From: an uncultured Verrucomicrobiae bacterium
GTDB lineage: Bacteria; Verrucomicrobiota; Verrucomicrobiia; Limisphaerales; UBA11358
Assembly (NCBI GenBank): GCA_963754775.1
Contig: CAVWHM010000023.1
Span: 94,481 to 158,480, forward strand
Direction of reading: 5' to 3'
DNA: 64,000 bases
The notes beneath the pieces were generated by a model that searched no databases, was not told where the DNA came from, and worked only from the letters and a program-made list of their open reading frames with translations. Below are positions 2 to 56,800 of this stretch, in pieces; position 1 is the stretch's first letter; every line of letters begins with the position of its first letter. The position numbers were made by a program, and so were the translations under genes.

Positions 2-938
2 AAGATCGTAGCGCAAGTCCAGAAAGTTGGCTGCGTCATTTGCGGCCAGACCGAACGCATGGTTCCGGCGGACAAAAAAATCTACGCGCTCCGCGACGCT
101 TCCGGCACCGTGCCCAGCATCCCACTCATCACCGCGTCCATCCTTTCAAAAAAGCTCGCCGAAAGTCTCGACGCGCTGGTGCTCGACGTGAAATTCGGCT
201 GCGCCGCGTTCATGCCAACCAGGGCCGATGCCCGCAAACTTGCCAAGGCTATGGTCGCGCTCGGCAACGAGTGCGGCGTGAACACCCGCGCGATTTTGAC
301 GGACATGAACACGCCGCTGGGCCGCGCCGCCGGCAATTGGTTGGAAGTGAAGGAAAGTGTGGCGGTGCTTGAGGCCGGTAGGGCTGACCTGCCGGTCAGC
401 CAGGCCGCGCAGCAGCGCGGCCCTACCGATTTGCTTGAACTCGTCATCGACTGCGCCGCGCATCTGCTCGTTCAAACCCGCAAATCGAAATCACTCGCCG
501 CCGCGCGCCAACAGGCCGGGGATTGTCTGAACTCCGGCTCCCCGCGCAAAAAATGGGACGAAATGCTCGTTGCTCAGGGCGCGGATCTGAAGGCGTTCAA
601 CAAAAAACTCGCGCCCGATTCCATCGCCCCGGACGTGGTTGAGTTGAGGGCGGGGAAATCCGGTTACATTTCCAAGATGCGACGCGCGGCTCATTGGCGA
701 AGTCATCCGCGACCTCGGCGGCGGCCGGCTCACGAAAGATGCCGGCATCAACTATGGCGTGGGCATTGACCAAATCGTCAAGCCCGGCGAGCGGGTGGAA
801 AAATCCGCGACGCTTTGCCGCGTTCACGCCGCTGATTCAAATCAGGCCAAAGCAGCCATCGCCTGCCTGAAGGCCGCCTTTGAAATTTCTGCGAGACCGC
901 AGGGCAAAACTTCGCTGGTCGCGGAAGTCATTCAGTAG
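2..938 (+). CDS. deoA: thymidine (pyrimidine-nucleoside) phosphorylase; 5' end outside window; one apparent frameshift near 680
   Basis: Translation from base 2 (KIVAQVQKVGCVICGQTERMVPADKKIYALRDASGTVPSIPLITASILSKK...) is thymidine-phosphorylase-like. After ...GYISKM (677-679) the family-typical tail DARLIGEVIRDLGGGRLTKDAGINYGVGID...VAEVIQ continues in the next frame to TAG at 936-938. Confidence 0.8.
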
Positions 939-3107: not shown

Positions 3108-3558
3108 ATGAAAGTTGCTGCTTACCATGCTAGATGCAAAGAGTGCCGGAAAGATTTTCCCTACCCTTGGCTGGGAGATTTTTCTTATGGCTCGTTTTTG
3201 TTTGCTGGCGAAAAAGGTGGAATTTTCGGGTACGTAAATGCTCTAAATCATCCGGTTTGGGATTTTCTGGAGTCTATATTGGTCAAACCGGGTTCGGGCA
3301 AACAAGCCGACTCGGATCATGCAGATCGGCTTCAAGCAGCGTTTGCACATTTCGCTGACCGAATCAATAGACCAAGAACTCTGTAACCATGATGTATGCC
3401 CTGTGTGCCGGTCGTCGCAAGTTGATTTATGGCCGACAGAATACACTGGCACCATTGAAGTCGATGAAGTCACCTATGCGAATTTTTTGTCCTTACCTGA
3501 ACCTGTTCGCAAGCAAGGCGTTTTGGAATTTGATCGCGTTGGAAGACTCGTTGTATGA
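3108..3558 (+). CDS. hypothetical small protein with two CxxC pairs (Zn-ribbon-like), low GC, wedged between hisD and hisC; one apparent frameshift near 3355-3362
   Basis: Its ATG at 3108 abuts the hisD TAA (3105-3107). Its end overlaps the hisC ATG (gtaTGAgt at 3555-3558). It has CKEC near the N-terminus and CPVC at about aa 95. ORFs 3108..3386 and 3319..3558 join as ...[21 protein letters not shown]. No family recognised. Confidence 0.5.
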
Positions 3559-4699
3559 GTTCAAGAGATTCTCAATTGGTTCGCCCGCTGGTGCGCGAGT
3601 TGCACCCTTACGTCTATGGCGAGCAGCCGAAGATCAAGGGGTTGATCAAGCTCAACACGAACGAGAATCCGTATCCGCCGTCGCCGAAGGTGCTGGCGGC
3701 GGTCAAGGCGGCGGCGGACGGGCGGCTGCGGCTGTATCCGAACCCGACGGCGCAGGCGTTGCGCGAAAAACTGGCGAAGCTGCATCGTTGTCACGCGGAC
3801 AACCTCATCGTCGGCAACGGCTCGGATGAATTGCTGGCGCTGGCGACGCGGGCGTTTGTGGAGCCGGTAGGGACGCGGTGCCCCGCGTCCGCGACCAAAA
3901 GGCTGCGCGGCAGCGCAGCCCTACCAAGCGGAACGGTCGTCCAATATTTCCCCCAAGCTATTCGCTCTATCCGGTGCTGGCGGACATTCATGGCGCGCGA
4001 AAAAATCCGGTGCCGCTCAAACCGGATTTCAGCCTGCCAAGCCTGGCCGAATTGAAACGGGGCGGAGTTTGGAGATTTGACGCCGCGCTGACTTATGTGA
4101 CAACGCCGAACGCGCCGAGCGGGCGCGGTTACAAAACGTCGGAACTGGAAAAACTATGTGCCGCGCAGAAGGGCGTAGTCATTCTCGACGAGGCTTACGT
4201 GGATTTCGCGGAGGAAAACGCGATGCGGCTGGCGTTGAAATATCCGCATGTGCTGGTGGCGCGGACGTTTTCCAAGGCGTATTCGCTGTGCTTCCAGCGC
4301 GTCGGCTATTTCGTCGGGCACCCCGAACTCATCGCGGCGTTGCACAAAATCCGCGACAGCTACAACGTGAACGGCCTCGGCCAGATCGCGGCGGAAGCGG
4401 CGCTGGGCGATTTGAAGTATTATCGCGCGAATTTCAAAAAAATCATCGCCGCGCGCGAGTGGCTGGCCCGCGAATTGACGAAGCTCGGTTTCCGGGTGTT
4501 TCCGAGCCGGACGAATTTCATTCTCGCGCAACCGCCGCGCTTCGCCGCGCACGAATGGCAGCACCAATTGCGCGAACGGAAAATCCTCGTCCGCTGGTTC
4601 AGTTTTCCGGAAGTGAAAAATTATTTGCGGATCACGATTGGCACGCCGGCGGAAGTGGAAGCGCTGGCAAGGGCCACGAGGAAAATTCTGTTCGGATGA
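3555..4699 (+). CDS. hisC: histidinol-phosphate aminotransferase carrying a 60-bp in-frame palindromic insert; one frameshift in a C5 run at 3950-3954
   Basis: [12 protein letters not shown]...GNGSDELL then ...[16 protein letters not shown]...[10 protein letters not shown]...[17 protein letters not shown] (PLP lysine motif). ORFs 3555..4055 and 3878..4699 join if the run ttccccca has one more C. Confidence 0.85.
3866..3925. repeat. intragenic nested-palindrome element (REP/MITE-like), exactly 20 codons, inside hisC
   Basis: Structure: GGTAGGG, then hairpin GGACGCGG-tgcc-CCGCGTCC, then gcgaccaaaag, then hairpin GCTGCGC-ggca-GCGCAGC, then CCCTACC. The outer 7-mers are reverse complements. It encodes [20 protein letters not shown], which interrupts the conserved RAFVEP / PPSYSLYP aminotransferase region. 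Confidence 0.75.
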
Positions 4700-4823: not shown

Positions 4824-5639
4824 GTGTATCTGGAATACTACGGATTGAAACAGGCGCCGTTCGACATCACGCCGAACCCGCGTTTTCTGTTTCACAGCCG
4901 GCGGCACCGCGAGGCGTACAATCATCTGCTTTACGGCATCTGCGAGCGCAAGGGTTTCGTGCAGCTCACCGGCGAGGTCGGCGCGGGCAAGACGACGCTT
5001 TGCCGCGCGTTGCTCGAACAGCTCAACGGCCTGTTTTCCACCGCGCTCATCCTCAATCCGGTGCTGGACGCCGACGGACTGATGAAGGCCATTGCGACCG
5101 AATTCGGCCTCGATGTCCAGGGACGCGACCGGTTGGAAACCATCACCCTCATCGGCGAATTTCTGCTCAAGCAGGTCCAGCAAGGCAAGGAAACCGTGCT
5201 CATCATTGACGAGGCGCAGAATCTGACCGAGGAATTGCTCGAACAAATCCGCCTGCTCTCGAACATCGAAACCGATGATCGCAAGCTGATGCAAATCGTC
5301 CTGCTGGGACAGCCCGAATTGCGCGACCGCCTCAACAGCCACCGCCTGCGCCAGCTCCGCCAACGCATCACCGTGCGTTATCATCTCGCGCCGCTCACGC
5401 GGGTTGAGGTCGGCCAATACATCCAGCACCGGCTCGAACTCGCCGGCGCGCAGGGCGTGCCGTATTTCACGCAACCGGCCCTCTGGCGCGTTTTCGGTTA
5501 CAGCCACGGCATCCCCCGGCTCATCAACGCCGTCTGCGACAAGGCGTTGCTCGCCGGTTTTGTCGAACAAAGTGACCACATCACCTACCAAATGGTGGGC
5601 CGCGCCATTCGCGAACTCGAAGGAAACATCCACCTATGA
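4824..5639 (+). CDS. ExeA/GspA-like AAA ATPase (PEP-CTERM-locus type putative secretion ATPase)
   Basis: 271-aa intact ORF with P-loop GEVGAGKTT, DEAQ box (IIDEAQNL) and LLGQPELR. This matches the ExeA/GspA and TIGR03015-like description from memory. Confidence 0.75.
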   Translation: MYLEYYGLKQAPFDITPNPRFLFHSRRHREAYNHLLYGICERKGFVQLTGEVGAGKTTLCRALLEQLNGLFSTALILNPVLDADGLMKAIATEFGLDVQGRDRLETITLIGEFLLKQVQQGKETVLIIDEAQNLTEELLEQIRLLSNIETDDRKLMQIVLLGQPELRDRLNSHRLRQLRQRITVRYHLAPLTRVEVGQYIQHRLELAGAQGVPYFTQPALWRVFGYSHGIPRLINAVCDKALLAGFVEQSDHITYQMVGRAIRELEGNIHL

Positions 5640-10859: not shown

Positions 10860-12932
10860 TTAATTTTTCGCCGGCGCGTTGGTGAACAGGAACGATTCCC
10901 GCCACGGCTGGTGGTTTTTGTAGAGTTGCAGCCGTTGTTGGATGCCTTCGAGGTTTTTCATTTTAGCGGCGATGGCGAGATCAAGGGCATTTTGCGTGGC
11001 GTCCAGCGCGTTGGTGAAATCGCCGGTTTCCGCGCAGGCCATGCCCAGCGCGTCGAGCACGAACGGTTGCGCGCCGCCGGTCAGCGCGTTGGCCTTGGCC
11101 GCAAGCACGAGCGCGGTTTTCCCGTCGCGAATTTCAGGATTTTCGGCGGCGGCCAGCACATGGGCGGTGTAGGCGAGGATTTGAAAATTGTCCGGGTCAA
11201 TCCGCAGCGCCGCGTGGAACTGATCCATCGCTTCGGCATCGCGGCCTTGTTTCAGCAGCGTTTTGCCCATTTCAAAATGCGGCCAGGGATAGGTCGGGTC
11301 GAGCCGCGCCGCGTTGGCGAATTCATTCATGGCTTCGCTGAACCGGCCGAGTTCGGCGAGCACACTGCCGAGGCCGTCATGCAAAGACGGAAGTTCCGGA
11401 TTCAGCCGGACGGCTTCGTGATATTCGGCCAGCGCCTGTTCCGGTTTGCCCATTTTATCCAGCAGGTTGCCGAGGTTATTGTGGGTTTGGTAACGCTCCG
11501 GCGCGAGCTTCGCGGCAGTGCGGTATTCGGCCAGCGCTTCATCCAATTTCCCTTGCTGTTCCAGTGCCACGCCGAGATTGGCATGCGCGATGTCGTTGTC
11601 CCGGGTCACGGCGAGCGCATGGCGAAAGAGCGTTTCGCTATCACACCAGAAACGCAATTGATGCTCCATGGCCAAAAGGCAGCCGCCCAAAATTAAAACC
11701 GCAACAGCGGCCACGGCAATGGGAGGAAATTGAAAGCGCGCCGCCAATTCGCGGAAGCCGAACGTGACAGCGAGGAACAGGCCGATGGAAGGAATGTAAG
11801 CGTAGCGGTCGGCCAGCGCCGCGCCGCCAACCTGCACCAGCCCGATGACCGGCACGAGTGTGCCCAAAAACCACAGCCAGCCGACGAGCAAATACGGCCA
11901 GCGCCGCCGGGCCAGCCAGACAGCGAGGGAAAGGAAAATCAAAACCGCGACCGCGGCTGCGATGGCAAACACGGGAATCTTGTCTGGCATCGGATAAATG
12001 ACGGCGAGATCGGCCGGCCAGATCATTTTCAGCAGGTAGCGCACAGCGGCGACCGGCGCGTTTTCCAAGCGATAGCGCAACGAAACTTTTGCCAGCGAGA
12101 CCACGGCTTCTCCATGTCGCTGCGCGAGAAAAGTGACAATGCAGGAAATGAGGGTGAGCAGAAAGAACGGCCACTTCTCCAACGCCAATCGCAGAACCCC
12201 TGCCACCTGCCACTTGTCCGCCGCGCTGAAGCGCTGCGAAAGCGGGTCTCCGGTCACTCGCTTGAGCGGCCAGAAGTCGAGCAGCAACATTACAAACGGC
12301 AGCGTGACGAGCATCGGTTTGGACATCAAACCGAGCGCGAAGAAAATCAGTGCCAGCCAATAGAAAGGTGACACGTGACACGTGACACGTGACAAGTCGG
12401 GCACGGGCGCGGCTTCTTTGCCAGTCACCTGCCCCCTGCTTGCCGCGCTGAAGCGGAGCGAAAGCGGGTCACTTGCCACGGATTTTGCATAGCGCACATA
12501 AGCCAGCAGGGTCAGCAGCCCGAAGAACGTGCTCAACACGTCCTTGCGTTCCGAAATCCATGCGACGGATTCAACGTGCAGCGGGTGCCAAGCGAACAGC
12601 GCGGCAACGAACGCGCCTGGCCACAACGTATTCGTCAGTCGGCGCAGCAGCGTGAAAAGCAAAACCACATTGGCCGCATGGAACAGGACGTTGACCAGAT
12701 GCTGCGCGCCGGGGTTCAACCCGAACAGTTCGCAATCCAGCATGTGCGAAAGCCAGGTGAGCGGATGCCAGTTGCCCGCATGTGCGGTCGTGAAGGCCCA
12801 TTCGACGCCGGCCCAGGTCAGGCCGTTTTGGACAACCTGATTCCCGGTGACGTAATCGTCGTCGTCATAGACCAGGAAGTTGTGGCGGCATACCGGCAGA
12901 TAAACCAGCAGTGTGACCAGCGCGAGCAACAA
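10860..12932 (-). CDS. TMTC-like protein: N-terminal PMT_2/GT-C-type polytopic membrane domain plus C-terminal TPR repeats
   Basis: 690-aa intact ORF. It has the acidic first-loop motif NFLVYDDDDYVTGN, typical of PMT/TMTC-type mannosyltransferases, followed by many TM segments. The C-terminal half is TPR repeats (AIAHANLGVALEQQGKLDEALAEYRTA... and so on). It contains three in-frame repeat inserts (see 12199-12476). Confidence 0.7.
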   Translation of the reverse strand: MLLALVTLLVYLPVCRHNFLVYDDDDYVTGNQVVQNGLTWAGVEWAFTTAHAGNWHPLTWLSHMLDCELFGLNPGAQHLVNVLFHAANVVLLFTLLRRLTNTLWPGAFVAALFAWHPLHVESVAWISERKDVLSTFFGLLTLLAYVRYAKSVASDPLSLRFSAASRGQVTGKEAAPVPDLSRVTCHVSPFYWLALIFFALGLMSKPMLVTLPFVMLLLDFWPLKRVTGDPLSQRFSAADKWQVAGVLRLALEKWPFFLLTLISCIVTFLAQRHGEAVVSLAKVSLRYRLENAPVAAVRYLLKMIWPADLAVIYPMPDKIPVFAIAAAVAVLIFLSLAVWLARRRWPYLLVGWLWFLGTLVPVIGLVQVGGAALADRYAYIPSIGLFLAVTFGFRELAARFQFPPIAVAAVAVLILGGCLLAMEHQLRFWCDSETLFRHALAVTRDNDIAHANLGVALEQQGKLDEALAEYRTAAKLAPERYQTHNNLGNLLDKMGKPEQALAEYHEAVRLNPELPSLHDGLGSVLAELGRFSEAMNEFANAARLDPTYPWPHFEMGKTLLKQGRDAEAMDQFHAALRIDPDNFQILAYTAHVLAAAENPEIRDGKTALVLAAKANALTGGAQPFVLDALGMACAETGDFTNALDATQNALDLAIAAKMKNLEGIQQRLQLYKNHQPWRESFLFTNAPAKN
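12199..12476. repeat. cluster of intragenic repeats inside the TMTC-like gene: two copies of a roughly 57-bp element plus a (GTGACAC)n heptamer run
   Basis: Copy A is 12199-12257 and copy B is 12421-12476. They share the core gccgcgctgaagcgSWgcgaaagcgggtc (27/29) and encode DPLSQRFSAADKWQVAG and DPLSLRFSAASRGQVTG. The run gtgacacgtgacacgtgacacgtgacaag at 12367-12398 encodes SRVTCHVS. The ORF stays open. Confidence 0.7.
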
Positions 12933-17127: not shown

Positions 17128-17195
17128 GGGAGGGACGCCGTGCCGGCGTCCCTGATTTGCCGAAAAGTTTGGGACGGCGGCACGCCGTCCCTCCC
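17128..17195. repeat. double GC-rich hairpin element after pal (same GGGACGCC family); possible terminator
   Basis: gggagGGACGCCGtgcCGGCGTCCc (17128-17152) and gGGACGGCGgcaCGCCGTCCctccc (17171-17195). Each is a hairpin, and the two are near reverse complements of each other. Confidence 0.6.
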
Positions 17196-19753: not shown

Positions 19754-19828
19754 GGTCGCCTCGCCGAGGCGACCGGTGCAAATTTTTTCACTTCCCACCG
19801 ACGGACGCCGCGGCGCGGCGTCCCTACC
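19754..19828. repeat. two GC-rich hairpins between convergent ispE and murJ (second is a GGTAGGGACGC-family member)
   Basis: GGTCGCCTCgccGAGGCGACC at 19754-19773. GGACGCCGCGgcgCGGCGTCCctacc at 19803-19828. Confidence 0.6.
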
Positions 19829-22972: not shown

Positions 22973-25290
22973 CAAAGGCAAAAAAAATTACATTGTCTTG
23001 ACGGCGAGGTAGCAGCCGACGTGAGTCGGCTCTGACTTTTCTGGCTGAAATAATGAGCGGACTCACGTCCGCTGCTACAAATTTGGACTGCGCGGACATA
23101 TCATCGCACACCAAATCAATAAACCAAAACCAGCACCGCCGCGTCTTGGGCAGATTTGACCACCTCCTCAAACTTCCGGTCAGCCGTCCCCGGCGCTTTG
23201 ATCTTGTTTGCCACATCCGGCACAGATTCAAGAAAGCCCAAAAGAAAACTGCTTTTGACGGCGTAGTTCACGTTTTCCGGCAACGCGCCACTCTCGGCCA
23301 GTGCCGCCCGCGCGCTCAACTTGGCCGACACGATGCCCACCACGTTGCCATGCTCATCCACCAGCGCGCCGCCCGAATTTCCCGGTTGCACAGGCACGCT
23401 GATTTGAAAATAGCGCGGGTCGTCCGACGCGCCGGACAGTGACGCGATTTCCCCTTTGGCCAACTTGGGCGCGAACCCTTGCAACCCGATGTCGGGAAAA
23501 CCGACCGTGGCCACTGTGCCGCCCAGCTTCACCGTGCGACTTGCTGCAATCGGCAACGGAGAAAATTTCCCTTCCGCTTTGAGCAACGCGATGTCATTGG
23601 CCGCGTCCACGCTTACCACTTTGGCGGCGATCATTCCTGCGCTAGTGACCAAACGAATCTGCACGGCATCTTTAACAACATGGTTGTTCGTAATCAAATA
23701 ACCATCGTCCGTGATGAAAAATCCCGTGCCGGTGGCCGATGGCTGGGAATTCGCAATGTTGTTGCCAGAAACAGATGAACCCGATTCCGGCGTTTTGCGT
23801 GGTTTAAACTCACGCGCCAATTGCTGCGCTTCAGCAATTTGATCTCGTGTCATAAATAAATTTTCCGCGTCGTTAAGTAACCTTTTTGCATTTTCATTAC
23901 CTTGCGCTGCGGAAAGGTTTAACCATTTGCACGCTTCAACATAGTCCTTAACCACTCCGTCGCCTTTCAAATAGCGCGCTCCAAGAACCATTTGAGCGTT
24001 TGCGTTTCCTTGTTCTGCGGCCTTACGAAACCATTTCAGGGCTTCGATATCATCTTTAGTCACGCCATCGCCTCTGGTATAACAAACTCCAAGGTCGTTT
24101 TGGGCTGAAGCATCGCCTTGTTCCGCAGCTTTGCGCCACCATATTGCGGCTTCCACATAATCCTTTTCACGCTGTCGCCGTCGGCATAGCAGAAGCCTAG
24201 AATGTATTGCGCTTTGGTATAATTCTGATCGGCGGCTTTGCGATACCACTTCACGGCTTCCGTATAATTTGTCTCTACGCCTTCACCCTTGTAATAACAT
24301 ACACCAAGAGCTTATTCAGCTTTGGCGTTTCCCTGTTCAGCAGCCTTGCGAAACCATTTGGCGGCTTCAGAATAATCTTGATCACGCCCATTCCACGATA
24401 AAAAAGTGTGCCGAGGAATATTACGCTATTACATCGCCATTTACTGGTTAGAGGCATTGCAAGCTGCAAAATGTTCGCGATCCTGTTCTTTTTGGTGGGA
24501 AGACAATAGAACCGCGCATGCAATAAGCACGGAAGTGTCCAAGTTAACGAATTCGCTTTCATATTCACAAATTAGTAGGCTTCAAACAGCCTATGTTGCT
24601 CGGGTTTGTTGGTGTGGAAAACAAAGAATCCAAAACATCCATATAAAATCAACATCCAAACGCCCTCATCGCCGGTTTCATCAACGTGACGCCAACATTC
24701 AAATACACATTGCCCACGCTTCAAATACGGTTCCCGCATTATCTTCGTCGTAATTCTCAGTGGCTCAACAGAAGACTGCTGCCGAACGTAAACGGCTTCA
24801 AAAGTTGATTGTAGAAATCAAAGTCAGGATGCAGCGTAAATAGCAGACCTTTTGTAATTCTAATCATCCCATCTTTGAATTCCTGATCGTCAATCCCTGC
24901 TCGGATTAGTTCTGGTCGTTCCGACACAGCCTGCATTGTAACCGCCAGCTTCTCCACAAACTGCATTTGGCGCTCTCTTGCGAAAGTGCTACCGATGACC
25001 TTCTCGTCCAAAATTCTTTGCCCAACTTCATTTCGGTCAAACGGCATTGAAGCAACAATTCTAAGCCGCTCATCAAATCCAGAGTGTTTATTATTACACT
25101 CAAAACAACAAGGCACCTTAATCAAATCGTCTGGTCTTGGTTTTGGGAAAAGGCCCATTGGCGGTATGTGGTCTAGAGTAAGTTCATCAGATGGGTGTTT
25201 CTCGCCTGGTTTGAGATCGTATTCTCTCACCGGGACACCACACAAATAACAGTTTTGTTTCGGATTATTCAATATCTTACCGCGAGAATA
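22615..25290. mobile_element. low-GC insertion inside the 3' end of tyrS (substitute tyrS tail, Sel1-protease gene, HNH gene); boundaries approximate
   Basis: An abrupt GC drop at about 22615 returns to high GC at about 25290, where the displaced native tyrS tail begins. No integrase was found inside it. Confidence 0.5.
23116..24568 (-). pseudogene. secreted Sel1-repeat protein fused to a trypsin-like (S1/DegP-type) serine protease domain; 2 frameshifts plus an in-frame TAA
   Basis: About 5 Sel1 units (AAKWFRKAAEQGNAKAE, AVKWYRKAADQNYTKAQ, AAIWWRKAAEQGDASAQ, ALKWFRKAAEQGNANAQ...). The protease domain follows: GTGFFITDDGYLITNNHVV...NDIALLK...GNSGGALV. TAA at 24312-24314. Frame breaks near 24385 and 24170. 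Confidence 0.7.
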
Positions 25291-29578: not shown

Positions 29579-31135
29579 CTAACGAACCTCCGACCGCGCC
29601 TCGAGGAATTTTTTTAATTCCATCGCCGCCTTGCCGCCAAACCCGGGCACTTCGGCGATTTGTTCCAGCGTCGCGGTTCGCAATCGTTGTACCGAGCCGA
29701 ATTTTTTCAGCAACGCCTGCTTGCGCCGTTCGCCGATGCCGGGGAATTCGTCCAGCACGCTTTCCGAAATCCGCTTGATGCGGAGCTGCGCGTTGTAGGA
29801 GTTGGCCACGCGATGACATTCGTCGCGAATCCGCTGGAGCAATTTAACCGCCGGATGATCGAGGCCGGGCCGCAGCGGTTTGCTTTCGCGAGGCTGGTAA
29901 ATTTCCTCGAACTCCTTCGCCAGCCCGATGACTGGAATTTTTTCGAGGCCGAGCTTTTTCAATTCCGCGCACGCGGCATTCAACTGGCCTTTGCCGCCGT
30001 CAATCAGAATCAGGTCAGGCAATGTAGCGCAGGCGTCCCGCCTGCTTCCCGCCCAAGTTTCCCCACCCGGCTTTGGCAGGCGGGACGCCTGCGCTACATT
30101 TACTTCGCGCAAAAACCTTGAATACCGTCGCTTTACAACCTCCGCCATGCTCGCAAAGTCATCCTGCCCCTCGACGGTTTTGATTTTAAACCGGCGATAA
30201 TTCACGCGGTCGGGCCGGCCGTTTTTGAAGCTGACCAGCGACGCCACGGCGAACGTGCCGCTGATGTTGGAAATGTCGAAGCCTTCAATCCTTTGCGGCG
30301 GGTTTGGCAAATCGAGCACTCTTGCCAGTTCGGCCAAATCGTTTTCCGGGTTGATGGAAAAAGGCAGCGTGTAAGGCACGCGCTCGAATTTCCGTTCCTT
30401 CTTCGTTGTTTCCCCCAGGTCGCGGAGGAGGTCGCGCAAGTCGGCGGCTGTTTCGAAATCCTGCGCGCCGGCGGCCTTTTTCATCCGGGCTTCGAGCTGT
30501 TCCTTCATTTCGTGGCACTGGCCTTCGAGGAAATCACACGCGGCGCCGACCTGTTCCAGATATTGTTTGCGAGTGACGTTGCCAATGCACGGCGCGGTGC
30601 AGTGTTTCAGATGCGCGTAGAGACAATGTTTGTAGTCGCTTTCACCCGGTGTGAATGCGCGGCAGCCGCGCAGATTGAATTGCCGCCGGACGAGCGCCAG
30701 CGTGTTGCGCAGCGCGCCCGAATTCGAGAACGGCCCGAAGTAACGCGCGCCGTCGTCCTTCCGGAGCCGGGTGAACGTGAAATTCGGGATCGGGTCGTTT
30801 AGATTCACCTTGAGCATCAGAAATCGCTTGTCGTCGCGGAAACTGACGTTGTAACGCGGATGAAATTCCTTGATGAGCTTGCCTTCGAGCAGGAACGCCT
30901 CCGGTTCGCTGCGGACGACGTGAAAATCGAAATCGTAAATCGCCTCGACGAGCGCATTGAACTTCAAGTCCCAGCCCAGGCGGCGCGACGGATGGAAATA
31001 CTGGCTGACGCGTTTGCGCAGGTCGCGCGCCTTGCCGACGTAGATGACCGTGCCGAACCGGTCGCGCATGAGATAGACGCCCGGCTTGTGCGGCAGCGTG
31101 CTGACTTTTTTGCGGATGGCTTCGGTCGCAGGCAC
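29579..31135 (-). CDS. uvrC: excinuclease ABC subunit C, carrying an 81-nt in-frame palindromic insert
   Basis: GIY-YIG (PGVYLMRDRFGTVIYVGKARDLRKRVSQY), a UVR-like helix pair, the PDLILIDGGKGQL endonuclease region and a C-terminal (HhH)2 (FPGIGERRKQALLKKFGS...VPGFGGKAA). Confidence 0.85.
   Translation of the reverse strand: MPATEAIRKKVSTLPHKPGVYLMRDRFGTVIYVGKARDLRKRVSQYFHPSRRLGWDLKFNALVEAIYDFDFHVVRSEPEAFLLEGKLIKEFHPRYNVSFRDDKRFLMLKVNLNDPIPNFTFTRLRKDDGARYFGPFSNSGALRNTLALVRRQFNLRGCRAFTPGESDYKHCLYAHLKHCTAPCIGNVTRKQYLEQVGAACDFLEGQCHEMKEQLEARMKKAAGAQDFETAADLRDLLRDLGETTKKERKFERVPYTLPFSINPENDLAELARVLDLPNPPQRIEGFDISNISGTFAVASLVSFKNGRPDRVNYRRFKIKTVEGQDDFASMAEVVKRRYSRFLREVNVAQASRLPKPGGETWAGSRRDACATLPDLILIDGGKGQLNAACAELKKLGLEKIPVIGLAKEFEEIYQPRESKPLRPGLDHPAVKLLQRIRDECHRVANSYNAQLRIKRISESVLDEFPGIGERRKQALLKKFGSVQRLRTATLEQIAEVPGFGGKAAMELKKFLEARSEVR
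30021..30100. repeat. perfect 25-bp inverted repeat with 30-nt spacer inside uvrC
   Basis: aatgtagcgcaggcgtcccgcctgc (30021-30045) is the exact reverse complement of gcaggcgggacgcctgcgctacatt (30076-30100). It translates as NVAQASRLPKPGGETWAGSRRDACATL directly before the conserved PDLILIDGG. Confidence 0.85.
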
Positions 31136-53869: not shown

Positions 53870-56800
53870 CTAGATTATGTGTAGGGCCGGAAGGTCTTTC
53901 GGACTGCCCGTTCTAGTTCTTGGTTTCCCCGCCCGCAACACTCGCAACGAAAATCCCCGCCCATTCTCGAACGGCTCGACCGTCGCCGTGACTTCCAGCA
54001 CCGGATACCGCACCGTCGCCAGTCCGTAGCTTTTGTAGGTCTGCGCGAATAATTCCGTTTCCACCATGCCCGTCCAGTCCGCCAGCGTCAGGAATTTCAT
54101 CGGCTCGCCGGTGATCTGGTGATGCGTGCGCTGCTCCACCACCAGCCCGCACGTCACCACCGTCTCGCCGACGTGTTCGCCCAGCCGCGCCACGGGGCAA
54201 TAGGTGTCCCAAGCCACGTCGTCAAATAATTCCAGCGGATGCCCGCTCACCGCGTAGCCGAACAATTCCGTCTCGGCCTCCAGTCGTTCACGGCGCGTTG
54301 GTTCGCGCAGCAAGGCCGGATTCGCGCGAAGAAATCCGAAACCGGATTCGTGCGCGCCGTCAAAATCAAATTCCAAATTCCGTGCCCGGTTTCTGCCTCG
54401 CTGCCACTGCTCTGATGCAGTTGCTGCGCCTCCCAAAACTGCCGCGTGCGCGTCTGGCCAAATTCATCAAAGCCGCCCGCGCGAATCATCGCCTCCAATT
54501 CTTCCGGCGACGGCTTTACGCGGCGATGAAAGTCGGCCAGCGAAGCGAACGCTCCGCGCTCGCGCTCGGCCAGCAGCCGTTTGCTGGTGCGGTCGGTCAG
54601 TCCTTTGGCGCGGGTCAGCGGCACACGGATCGCATTGCCATGCGACCGCGAACTGCGGGCCCGGTTCGTTGACGGTCGGCGGCAGGAATTTCAACCCGAG
54701 CCGGTAGCTTTCCAGCACATAAACCAGCGGGTCATAAAAGCCTTTGCCGTTGGTCAGCACGGCCGCCATGAACTCCGCCGGGTAATTGCGCTTGAGCCAG
54801 GCCGATTGATACGCCTCGACGCCATAGGCCGTGGAATGCGCCTTGCAAAAGGCGTAGCCGGCAAAGCCCGCGACCAGTCCCCACACTTCCTCAATCTTTT
54901 CCGGCGCGTGTCCGCGCGCCCGCGCCGACGCGAAGAATTCCTCCTGAATCTCCGCGATGACGGCGCGCTTCTGTTTGTTCAACGCCCGGCGCAACACGTC
55001 CGCCCGGCCCGGCGGCAAGCCGGCAAACGCCTCGCAGATTTGCAGAATGTGCTCCTCATAAACCACCAGCCCGAACGTGTCGCGCAACACGGGTTCCAGC
55101 GACGGATGCGGATACGTCACCGGCTCCAGCCCCTGATAGCGCCGCGTGAACGCCAGCTTCTTGCCTTCGTTGGCCGCGCCGGGCCGGATGACGCTCACGA
55201 TGGCGATGAGCGTGTCAATGTCCCGCACGTTGCACTGGCGGCACAGGCCGGTCATGGCCGGGCTTTCGATGTGATGCACCGCCCGCGCCGCCGCCGGAAA
55301 TCATTTCCCAAACCTGCGGGTCCTGCCACGGCTCCAGCGCGTTCAAGTCCACGGTGATGCCGCGCTTGGCCAGCGACGCCTTCACGTCGCGCATCGCCGC
55401 CAGCCCGCCTTGCGCCAGCACGTCAATTTTCACCAGGCCGATGGCTTCCACGGCGTCCATGTCGAAATGCGTGGTGGGATAGCCTTTGTTGGAAATGAAC
55501 GTCGGCGTCAGTTCGTGCATCGGCTGGCGCGACAGCACCACGCCGCACGGGTGCATCTTGGGATAGCGCGGAAAGCCGTCGAGAAACTCCGCCATGTCCA
55601 GCGCGGTCTTGAACGGTTCTTCGTTCAACGGCAGGTCGCGGTTTTCGGGACTGGCGGCGAGCAGTTCGCGCAACTTCGCCCCGCCGCTCGGCGTGGGTTC
55701 GTCCGGCACCCAGCCGCCGCCGAAGCTCCACGGAAAATGTTCGGTGAACCGGCGCACTTCGCGTTCGGCCACGCCCAGCACCTTCGCCACGTCCGCAAAC
55801 GCGCTGCGGGCCTGAAACGTCGAGAAGCCGCCCACCACGGCGCAATGCTCCCGGCCATATTTGGCGAAGATGAGGTCCACCACGTCGTCTTTCCGGTCAT
55901 GCGGAAAATCAATGTCAATGTCCGGCAGCTTGTTCAGCGCCATGCGTTCCTCGTTCAGAAAGCGCCGGAAATAGAGGCCGAAGCGGATGGGGCAGACATC
56001 GGAAATGCCGAGGCAATAGCACACGAGCGAGTCCGCCGCGCTGCCGCGCGTGATCCATTCGATGCCGTGCGCGCGGCAATCTTGCAGGATGTTCCAGACG
56101 ACCAGAAAGTATTCCTCGTAGCCGACGGCGCTGATGATGCGCAATTCCTGTTCGATTTGCGGGCGCATGGTTGCGAGTGCGATCGCCGTAGCGCCGCGCG
56201 CGCCGTCCACACGAGCTGGTGAAGAAATTCGCGCGGCGTGGAACCGTCCGGCGGCACGAACGCGGGAAACTGCGGCTTGCCGAACGGCATTTCAAAATTG
56301 CAGCGTTCGGCGATTTCCAGCGAGTGCGCCAGCCATTCGGGATGTTCTTTGCACGCCGCCGCCATTTCTGCCGGCGTGCGAAAATGAAACCGTCCGTCCG
56401 TTGCGTTTGGACGGATGTTCCTGGCGGAGCAACGTCAGCGTGCGGATGGATTGCACGATGTCGTATTTCATCCGGTCGTCCGGCGCTGGCGTAATGAATC
56501 GCCGGACAGGCGACGACGGGAAAGTCCTAGCTCCGCACCCGGTAGGGACGCGCTGCCGCGCGTCCGGCCGATGAGGTGCTCTCGTCTGTGCCATCTGATA
56601 AAAACGTCCGGGAAACAGTTCGGCCAGCCGCAAGTCCGGGCTGACGGCAATCAAGCCGTCGGTGAATCCGTCCAGACGTTCAAACGCGATAGGGCGGCGC
56701 TGCTGCGCCGCAACCGCGCCTTCCTCGTTGCTCTTTCTCGGCTTGGCGCGACAACAGCCGATTCAAATTGTGATAGCCGCGCGCGGATTCGACAAAGAGC

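Follow-up and report, generated by a model that had tools for sequence, protein, structure and literature searches.

How does a long palindrome come to lie within the reading frame of an enzyme gene, and what becomes of it there? The question is raised by hisC, the gene for histidinol-phosphate aminotransferase (HisC), in a 64-kb stretch of DNA from an uncultured Verrucomicrobiae bacterium (contig CAVWHM010000023.1, positions 94,481 to 158,480; hereafter the window). A 60-bp palindrome occupies positions 3866–3925 of the window, inside hisC. It is very likely that this palindrome is a dimer of two inverted GTAG-tagged repetitive extragenic palindrome (REP) units, that is, a non-autonomous element of the REPIN (REP doublet forming hairpin) type, which sits in a tight helix-to-strand turn of HisC. 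This copy of a dispersed family adds 21 codons to the turn. The same dimer is found in at least 12 related lineages, in which hisC is intact and under purifying selection.

The palindrome and its insertion into hisC

The dimer lies on the plus strand and was delimited with a repeat finder, folding and a motif scan. It reads GGTAG-GGACGCGG-tgcc-CCGCGTCC-gcgaccaaaa-GGCTGCGC-ggca-GCGCAGCC-CTACC. Its parts are a GTAG head (3867–3870), hairpin 1 (3871–3890), a spacer (3891–3900), hairpin 2 (3901–3920) and the complementary CTAC (3921–3924). Each REP unit is 24 nt long: GTAG is followed by a G+C-rich stem of 8 bp, which closes on itself around a loop of 4 nt (TGCC). Within the dimer the units are inverted and opposed, with their GTAG heads outward. 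According to the repeat finder, the 8-bp stems of both internal hairpins are perfect, and the outer arms show 81% complementarity across 21 nt.

The RNA fold of the palindrome has a free energy of -40.5 kcal/mol (z = -3.0) and the DNA fold one of -24.4 kcal/mol (z = -3.3); in neither case was any of 200 shuffles equally stable. The predicted fold is a nested three-helix structure. The original prediction, made from the sequence alone, had described a nested palindrome enclosing two hairpins at this position, and the sequence, the repeat finder and the fold z-scores all agree with it. An Rfam scan of positions 3400–4400, with E-values up to 1, gave nothing meaningful; the best hit, RF01683 (E = 0.86), reached 12.6 bits where the gathering score is 50.

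The proteins closest to the HisC of the window come from Verrucomicrobiota metagenome bins. Relatives are denoted below by locus (L) and protein (P) numbers. In outgroup HisC sequences from Kiritimatiellia, Lentisphaeria, Deltaproteobacteria and others, the distance from the GNGSDE motif to the P.Y motif is 26 residues (27–28 in a few), against 47 in the window. Within the clade, one relative, L067, has an empty site with the sequence FVEPGGVVQYF. When P0001, which is 96% identical to the window protein, was aligned to the solved HisC structure PDB 3HDO, its residues 103–124 were left unmatched. Because the segment is absent from the outgroups, from 3HDO and from L067, the net gain amounts to 63 nt, or 21 codons. 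The alignment with orthologs thus bears out the predicted insertion and corrects its length. The palindrome is 60 bp long, as had been claimed, but the gain over the empty-site homologue is 21 codons and not 20. The first base of the palindrome is the last base of a Pro codon. By comparison with the empty site, the net REP-derived insertion runs approximately from 3867 to 3929 and comprises the 60-bp palindrome plus 3 nt.

The inserted segment falls between a helix and a strand. The loop is probably exposed on the protein surface. The indications are indirect: it is unmatched in the 3HDO alignment, it joins a predicted helix to a predicted strand, and it varies extremely in both length and sequence. 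An AlphaFold2 model of P0001, built from an alignment of 30 sequences in which all homologues were at least 76% identical, was discarded since the alignment was too shallow; its mean predicted local distance difference test (pLDDT) score was 49.

The hisC gene, delimited by its open reading frames (ORFs) and by alignment to relatives, extends over 3555–4699 on the plus strand and is split in two frames. The N-terminal ORF covers 3555–4055, and the C-terminal ORF covers 3878–4699 in the other frame. The split is due to a 1-nt deletion in a run of C at 3950–3954, 25 nt downstream of the dimer, where the window has TTCC-CCC and the relatives have TTCCTCCC. The insertion had been placed between the motifs RAFVEP and PPSYSLYP. 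Its location holds, but in the window the two motifs are in different frames. In relatives that are 95–96% identical and come from independent assemblies, the element lies within an intact hisC ORF of 381 aa. Between the window and L082, codon positions 1 and 2 of hisC differ at 3.1% of sites and four-fold sites at 10.7%. This difference indicates purifying selection on the hisC gene that carries the insert.

Two neighbouring genes show similar lesions. The gene for thymidine/pyrimidine-nucleoside phosphorylase (TP) has an uncompensated extra base near 652, and hisD has one near 2664. TP gene, hisD and hisC are all intact, in unchanged order, in the relatives L081 and L082. The single-base indels in the three genes would reflect either assembly error or gene decay, the genes being pseudogenes in the second case. 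A programmed frameshift at 3950 was considered and ruled out, as the relatives have an ordinary in-frame TTCCTCCC and the two neighbour genes carry unrelated single-base indels. These unexplained indels could also raise the suspicion that the palindrome itself is an assembly artefact, or a palindrome formed by chance. The probability of this is negligible, because the element is present at the same site in at least 11 independent metagenome assemblies and because its folding stability is matched by none of the shuffles.

A dispersed family of GTAG-tagged hairpins

The hisC palindrome is not alone in the window. A scan for perfect hairpins preceded by GTAG returned 12, against 0.55 expected (maximum 2) in Markov shuffles. 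One of them, at 24576–24593, is probably a chance match. GTAG is the commonest 4-mer preceding hairpins in the window, and the tag is present on 7 of the 15 perfect hairpins with a stem of at least 8 bp. Most of the tagged hairpins form dimers with outward heads, and there are five such GTAG dimers. In total, eight GTAG-type loci with 12 units, and one GGAG-headed dimer, were observed in the 64 kb examined. Coding sequence is involved at about half of the REP loci, namely those within hisC, the TP gene and uvrC, those that overlap two stop codons, and possibly the one among the fragmented ORFs at 56.5 kb. The core of the original prediction, a REP-like repeat inserted in frame into coding sequence and adding a peptide loop, is upheld by the excess of GTAG hairpin dimers, by the lack of the segment in outgroup HisC proteins and in 3HDO, and by the intact genes of the relatives, which are under purifying selection.

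Two in-frame dimers in other genes had been missed. The first, at 378–427 (plus strand), lies in frame in the TP gene. It is 50 bp long with a 1-nt spacer and has the same architecture as the hisC dimer. It encodes approximately GRADLPVSQAAQQRGPT, a net gain of 15 aa over relatives with an empty site. The second, at 30024–30097, is a dimer of 74 bp in frame in uvrC (29579–31135, minus strand). It encodes approximately VAQASRLPKPGGETWAGSRRDACAT within the RNase H endonuclease domain of UvrC. The REP family of the uvrC dimer also fills the hisC loop in other lineages (P0061 and P0067). The lengths of these two dimers, 50 and 74 bp, show that divisibility by three is not inherent in the element; only one of the five GTAG dimers of the window, that in hisC, has such a length. 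Selection on the net insertion acts as the filter that leaves net lengths in multiples of three.

The remaining copies lie between genes, at gene ends or in a fragmented region. Directly 3' of the TP gene, at 935–1010, there is a GTAG dimer of another stem family (ACAGGCG/GACAGGCA). A GTAG dimer with stems AGCCGAC/AGCGGAC lies at 23009–23078 between two convergent long ORFs. The dimer with GGAG instead of GTAG heads, at 17128–17195, is intergenic and follows a gene of the OmpA family. Single GTAG units are located at 19803–19828 (minus strand), at the 3' end of murJ, and at 56541–56565 (plus strand), in a fragmented region, where a neighbouring ORF has a weak, sub-threshold match to the PHP domain. 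The 56541–56565 unit has the same 5' module as the hisC copy. The recurrence of this module at these two sites, inverted at the first, had been predicted and was recovered by motif search: the motif GGTAGGGACGCG with at most one mismatch has 4 matches in the window against 0.22 expected. The stems of the window copies are heterogeneous (GGCTGACC, GGCCGCGC, GGACGCGC and GGACGCCGC).

The TAG stop codon of the TP gene (936–938) lies within the GTAG head of the adjoining REP, and the TAG stop codon of murJ (19824–19826, minus strand) is likewise within a GTAG head. Judging from these positions, the REP appears to supply the stop codon of both genes. Between hisD and hisC, the window has an ORF of 92 aa with a Cys-rich start (3108–3386) and no Pfam match. 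At this place L082 has an ORF of 149 aa, and several relatives have other genes inserted.

The family extends beyond the window. An exact scan of metagenome contigs with the pattern GGTAGGGACGC-N8-9-GCGTCC returned at least 120 stretches (loci L084–L203). Among the matches listed, 88 of 123 elements have a CCCTACC-type partner and are dimers, and no ORF spans 63 of the 108 elements that do not lie at a contig edge. Also among the matches listed, copies lie in EPSP synthase, CtaA, a pyridine-nucleotide oxidoreductase and a NUDIX protein, in each case within the region that matches Pfam, and in the interdomain linker of PutA. Exact GGTAGGG...CCCTACC dimers among them have a length divisible by three in 34 of 67 cases (binomial p = 0.004), or in 30 of 56 after crude dereplication. 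This excess was not relied on, because the copies are not independent and because only the hisC dimer among the five in the window has such a length. The 5' unit GGTAGGGACGCGGTGC[CT]CCGCGTCC was found at three unrelated metagenome loci, L120, L132 and L144.

One metagenome contig links the family to a transposase. On L102, positions 110–768 constitute a REPtron, with a gene at 218–658 (minus strand) for a 146-aa Y1_Tnp protein (PF01797, 27 bits against a cut-off of 23) that has the HUH and Tyr motifs. To either side of this gene, at 110–188 and 691–768, lie GGTAGGGACGC dimers, which have the same head and stem base. More ORFs similar to REP-associated tyrosine transposases (RAYTs) are present on L104 and L195. 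A search of the six frames of the 64-kb window with a regular expression for the HUH and Y motifs found nothing, although the same expression was positive in L102, L104 and L195.

These observations suggest a mechanism. The hisC copy would have been mobilised in trans by a RAYT, an HUH/Y1 transposase, acting on single-stranded hairpin DNA. Insertions would survive only where the frame is kept, where the TAG of the head is not read as a codon, and where a surface loop tolerates extra residues. Such a survival filter would lead to the reuse of the same loops.

Turnover of loop contents and constancy of the stems

The hisC site is a hotspot, occupied in nearly all relatives. All of the 120 returned homologues, which are 79–96% identical, carry an insert between FVEP and VQYF. 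The inserts at this site fall into 12 unrelated sequence clusters and are 10–30 residues long. In all, about 150 relatives have an insert of at least 12 unrelated types, and L067 alone is empty. Among protein pairs whose flanks are 92–95% identical, 61% have loops that cannot be aligned. The DNA of the site was compared in 34 species representatives. Strong palindromes, with z from -4 to -9.5, are present in L001, L002, L004, L006 and L007. The other occupants are tandem heptamers, (CCAAAGT)n and variants, or short inserts without structure. A rough neighbour-joining tree places the empty-site L067 in a nested position, with inserts on the basal branches. The expanded loop is therefore old, and its contents turn over.

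Loops filled with heptamers are seen in L034 (10293–10328), L018, L025 and L005, and in the proteins P0018, P0040, P0052 and others; three heptamer units restore the frame. None of the 39 distinct HisC loop variants has a negative net charge, and 35 of them are positive. K and R make up 22% of their residues, D and E 6%. The non-negative charge holds for palindromic, heptamer-repeat and unstructured DNA alike (P0001–P0120, L001–L034).

The loop of the TP gene shows the same turnover. It is empty in L008 and L034, and it contains a different REP family in each group: one in the window (378–427) and L081, others in L082 (about 2810–2880), L004 (about 4905–4985) and L205 (about 1275–1385). The occupant in L205 belongs to the same family as the dimer at 935–1010 of the window, which is intergenic there. 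In L004, a single REPIN family occupies the TP loop, the hisC loop and a second site in hisC. This second in-frame REPIN lies near the C-terminus, at about 10965–11050, between FILARPPK and LEAQGW. In L001, a further copy of the family of the hisC cassette is present nearby. Apparent copies of the cassette in the flanks of L010 and L017 were rejected as chance k-mer matches of low complexity; flanking copies are real only in the window, L001 and L004.

Could the segment be an ancestral protein loop with no mobile origin, in which palindromy is incidental? Of about 150 related HisC proteins, basal branches included, only one lacks an expanded loop of some kind. This would fit the explanation, and so would the absence of negative charge in the 39 loop variants. 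The coding DNA, however, is made of GTAG-hairpin units that recur in the window, both between genes and within other genes. The loop types are unrelated between proteins whose flanks are 88–95% identical, and the palindrome is far more stable than its shuffles. An ancestral loop is thus very improbable, and it is largely refuted by the repeat census within the window.

If the segment is a REP dimer, how has it evolved in hisC? The hisC DNA of the 12 lineages that share the cassette was aligned (alignment A3), and the mean pairwise divergence was calculated. It is 31.0% at the four-fold synonymous sites of hisC. Within the dimer, it is 58.6%, with indels, in the spacer, 16.1% in the hairpin loops, 11.2% in the outer GGTAG/CTACC, and 4.2% at the 32 stem positions. 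Invariant columns make up 24 of 32 in the stems and 18 of 101 at four-fold sites (Fisher p = 5e-9). Synonymous positions within the stems are also conserved, and thus the constraint is on nucleotides, not on the peptide. Simple neutral decay, as first read from the differences in L082 and L081, is contradicted for the stems by the comparison of 12 lineages. The hisC copy is not decaying freely: its stems are nearly constant, and its spacer, loops and heads drift. The constancy of the stems is likely the result of selection on the hairpins, as mRNA or as DNA, or of repeated correction from other copies. A lower mutation rate in the stems is the least likely of the three candidates.

Selection on the hairpins would mean that the dimer is a domesticated structural element. 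The host would retain the hairpins because in the hisC mRNA they affect its stability or processing or make translation pause between folding units, or because as DNA they bind a protein, and the REP origin would be only history. The contrast between stem and four-fold divergence, which includes synonymous stem positions, is in line with this. Both hairpins are paired in 99% of the cells of the alignment, and six of the eight stem changes are one-sided changes to G.U on the sense strand, the other two being disruptions. Moreover, the GTAG heads, which are needed for cleavage by the transposase, decay faster than the stems (11% against 4%). On the other hand, there are no compensatory double changes in the stems, and selection on structure is therefore not proven. 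The excess of G.U (6 of 7 transitions, p ~0.06) could come from a C-to-T bias on the coding strand. L081, in which 26 of 74 columns are changed, has lost the 3' hairpin, yet its hisC is intact. In many relatives the site holds heptamer repeats or short inserts without structure, whose fold z-scores are about 0, and there is the lack of an Rfam match. Domestication is therefore considered unlikely as the explanation.

The change in L081 is abrupt. Between L081 (6307–6390) and the window, the 26 differences in the 74 aligned columns of the hisC dimer compare with 8 of 186 four-fold sites (4.3%; p = 5e-10), although the TP dimer of L081 is identical to that of the window at all 50 positions. The several indels in the L081 copy cancel out; the 3' hairpin is lost and the frame is kept. 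This pattern points to a discrete rewrite of the hisC copy, as far as can be read from the alignment. No matching copy that could have been the donor was found in the 203 loci.

Such a rewrite is what concerted evolution would produce, in which the hisC copy is overwritten by gene conversion or re-inserted from the REP pool of the genome, and the stems track a master copy. The jump in L081 beside an unchanged TP copy is consistent with this. The spacer diverges, at 59% and with indels, beyond the synonymous sites, while the stems are nearly identical; the 5' unit occurs at the unrelated L120, L132 and L144; and four REP families occupy the TP loop of close relatives. Against it, the stems of the window copies are heterogeneous, and chance draws from such a pool would be expected to yield differing stems, yet 12 lineages keep the same two hisC stems. 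In addition, no donor for the L081 rewrite was found in the 203 loci. We give concerted evolution only a small chance of being the explanation.

A wider proposal, in which intragenic REP hairpins are more than inert passengers, joins two ideas: that the hairpins inside the frame are selected, at the level of mRNA or DNA, and that particular surface loops of housekeeping enzymes, those of HisC and TP, are landing pads, re-occupied by the REPIN family of each lineage. This combination is doubtful. If it is true, a hairpin within a reading frame is itself under selection, and the REP/RAYT machinery targets coding DNA site-specifically, rather than by random insertion followed by selection.

The reading of the palindrome as a mobilised REPIN dimer in hisC has to be weighed against five points. 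First, the loop may be older than the REP dimer, which would then have taken the place of an earlier insert. Second, the insertion has left no target-site duplication: the flanks GAGCC and AAGCGG share no direct repeat. The flank profiles of 128 units show only a preference for T at -1 (47% against a background of 21%), with no strong target motif, and the hisC copy departs from this preference. Third, we infer mobilisation by a RAYT, and no RAYT-like motif is present in the 64-kb window. Fourth, the loop may not be made in the source genome, where hisC is frameshifted. Fifth, the covariation test on the 12 lineages yielded no double changes, so that conservation of structure and conservation of sequence are inseparable in it.

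With these reservations, the locus constitutes a natural experiment: among about 150 relatives, a single codon position of a conserved enzyme bears cassettes of at least 12 unrelated kinds. One of the cassettes can be traced through 12 lineages, with the synonymous sites of the host as a neutral yardstick. It bears on the old question of whether REP and REPIN copies are selfish and decaying, kept by the host, or refreshed from a pool. It also indicates how essential enzymes gain new and mostly basic surface peptides from mobile hairpins.

Comparison with known REP systems and palindromic elements

The closest known system is that of the GTAG-tagged REPs described by Di Nocera et al. (2013, BMC Genomics 14:522; PMC3733652), which form dimers, termed 'HH' when the heads are outside. 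These REPs are also found within genes, where over half of the inserts are dimers that encode 20–30 residues; the verrucomicrobium Opitutus terrae has the highest intragenic count, and the genes that carry such inserts include those for Uvr proteins and DnaE2 (PMC3733652). REPINs are mobilised by RAYTs (Bertels and Rainey 2011; PMC3116915). The original definition of REPs as extragenic does not cover the hisC copy, but intragenic exceptions are documented (PMC3733652). In-frame REP dimers in genes have thus been documented already, in particular in Verrucomicrobia, and the hisC copy is another example.

The elements described here resemble the GTAG REPs in the terminal GTAG followed by a hairpin with a stem of 6–9 bp, and in the inverted dimers with outward heads. 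In the 64 kb examined, copies are dispersed, mostly near the 3' ends of genes and in a minority of cases within genes, as dimers; a Y1/HUH transposase gene flanked by REPs was seen on metagenome contig L102. They differ in several respects. About half of the loci in the window touch coding sequence, and a single loop holds many unrelated cassettes in different relatives. In the hisC copy the stems are about 7-fold better conserved than synonymous sites. The RAYT is known here from metagenome contigs, the source genome being seen as a 64-kb window only.

A second comparison is with MITEs (miniature inverted-repeat transposable elements) derived from insertion sequences (ISs). They are likewise small, non-autonomous elements with inverted ends, and they occasionally lie in frame in genes. 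Unlike in MITEs, the ends of the hisC element are GTAG-hairpin units and not IS-type inverted repeats, and there is no target-site duplication. The enzyme class associated with elements of the hisC type is the Y1 HUH transposase.

The third comparison is with the Rickettsia palindromic elements (RPEs), which Ogata et al. reportedly described in 2000 as in-frame palindromes in protein genes. RPEs are the classic example of selfish palindromic DNA that has entered protein genes in frame. RPE-1 elements are longer, at about 100–150 bp. As with RPEs, the hisC dimer is an in-frame palindrome in a housekeeping gene that adds a surface peptide compatible with function. The host phylum, however, is a different one, and the tag is GTAG here and not the CGTC of the superfamily in which RPE-4 and RPE-6 have been placed (PMC3733652). 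It is by this tag, and not by an alignment of RPE sequences, that the hisC dimer is set apart from the RPEs.

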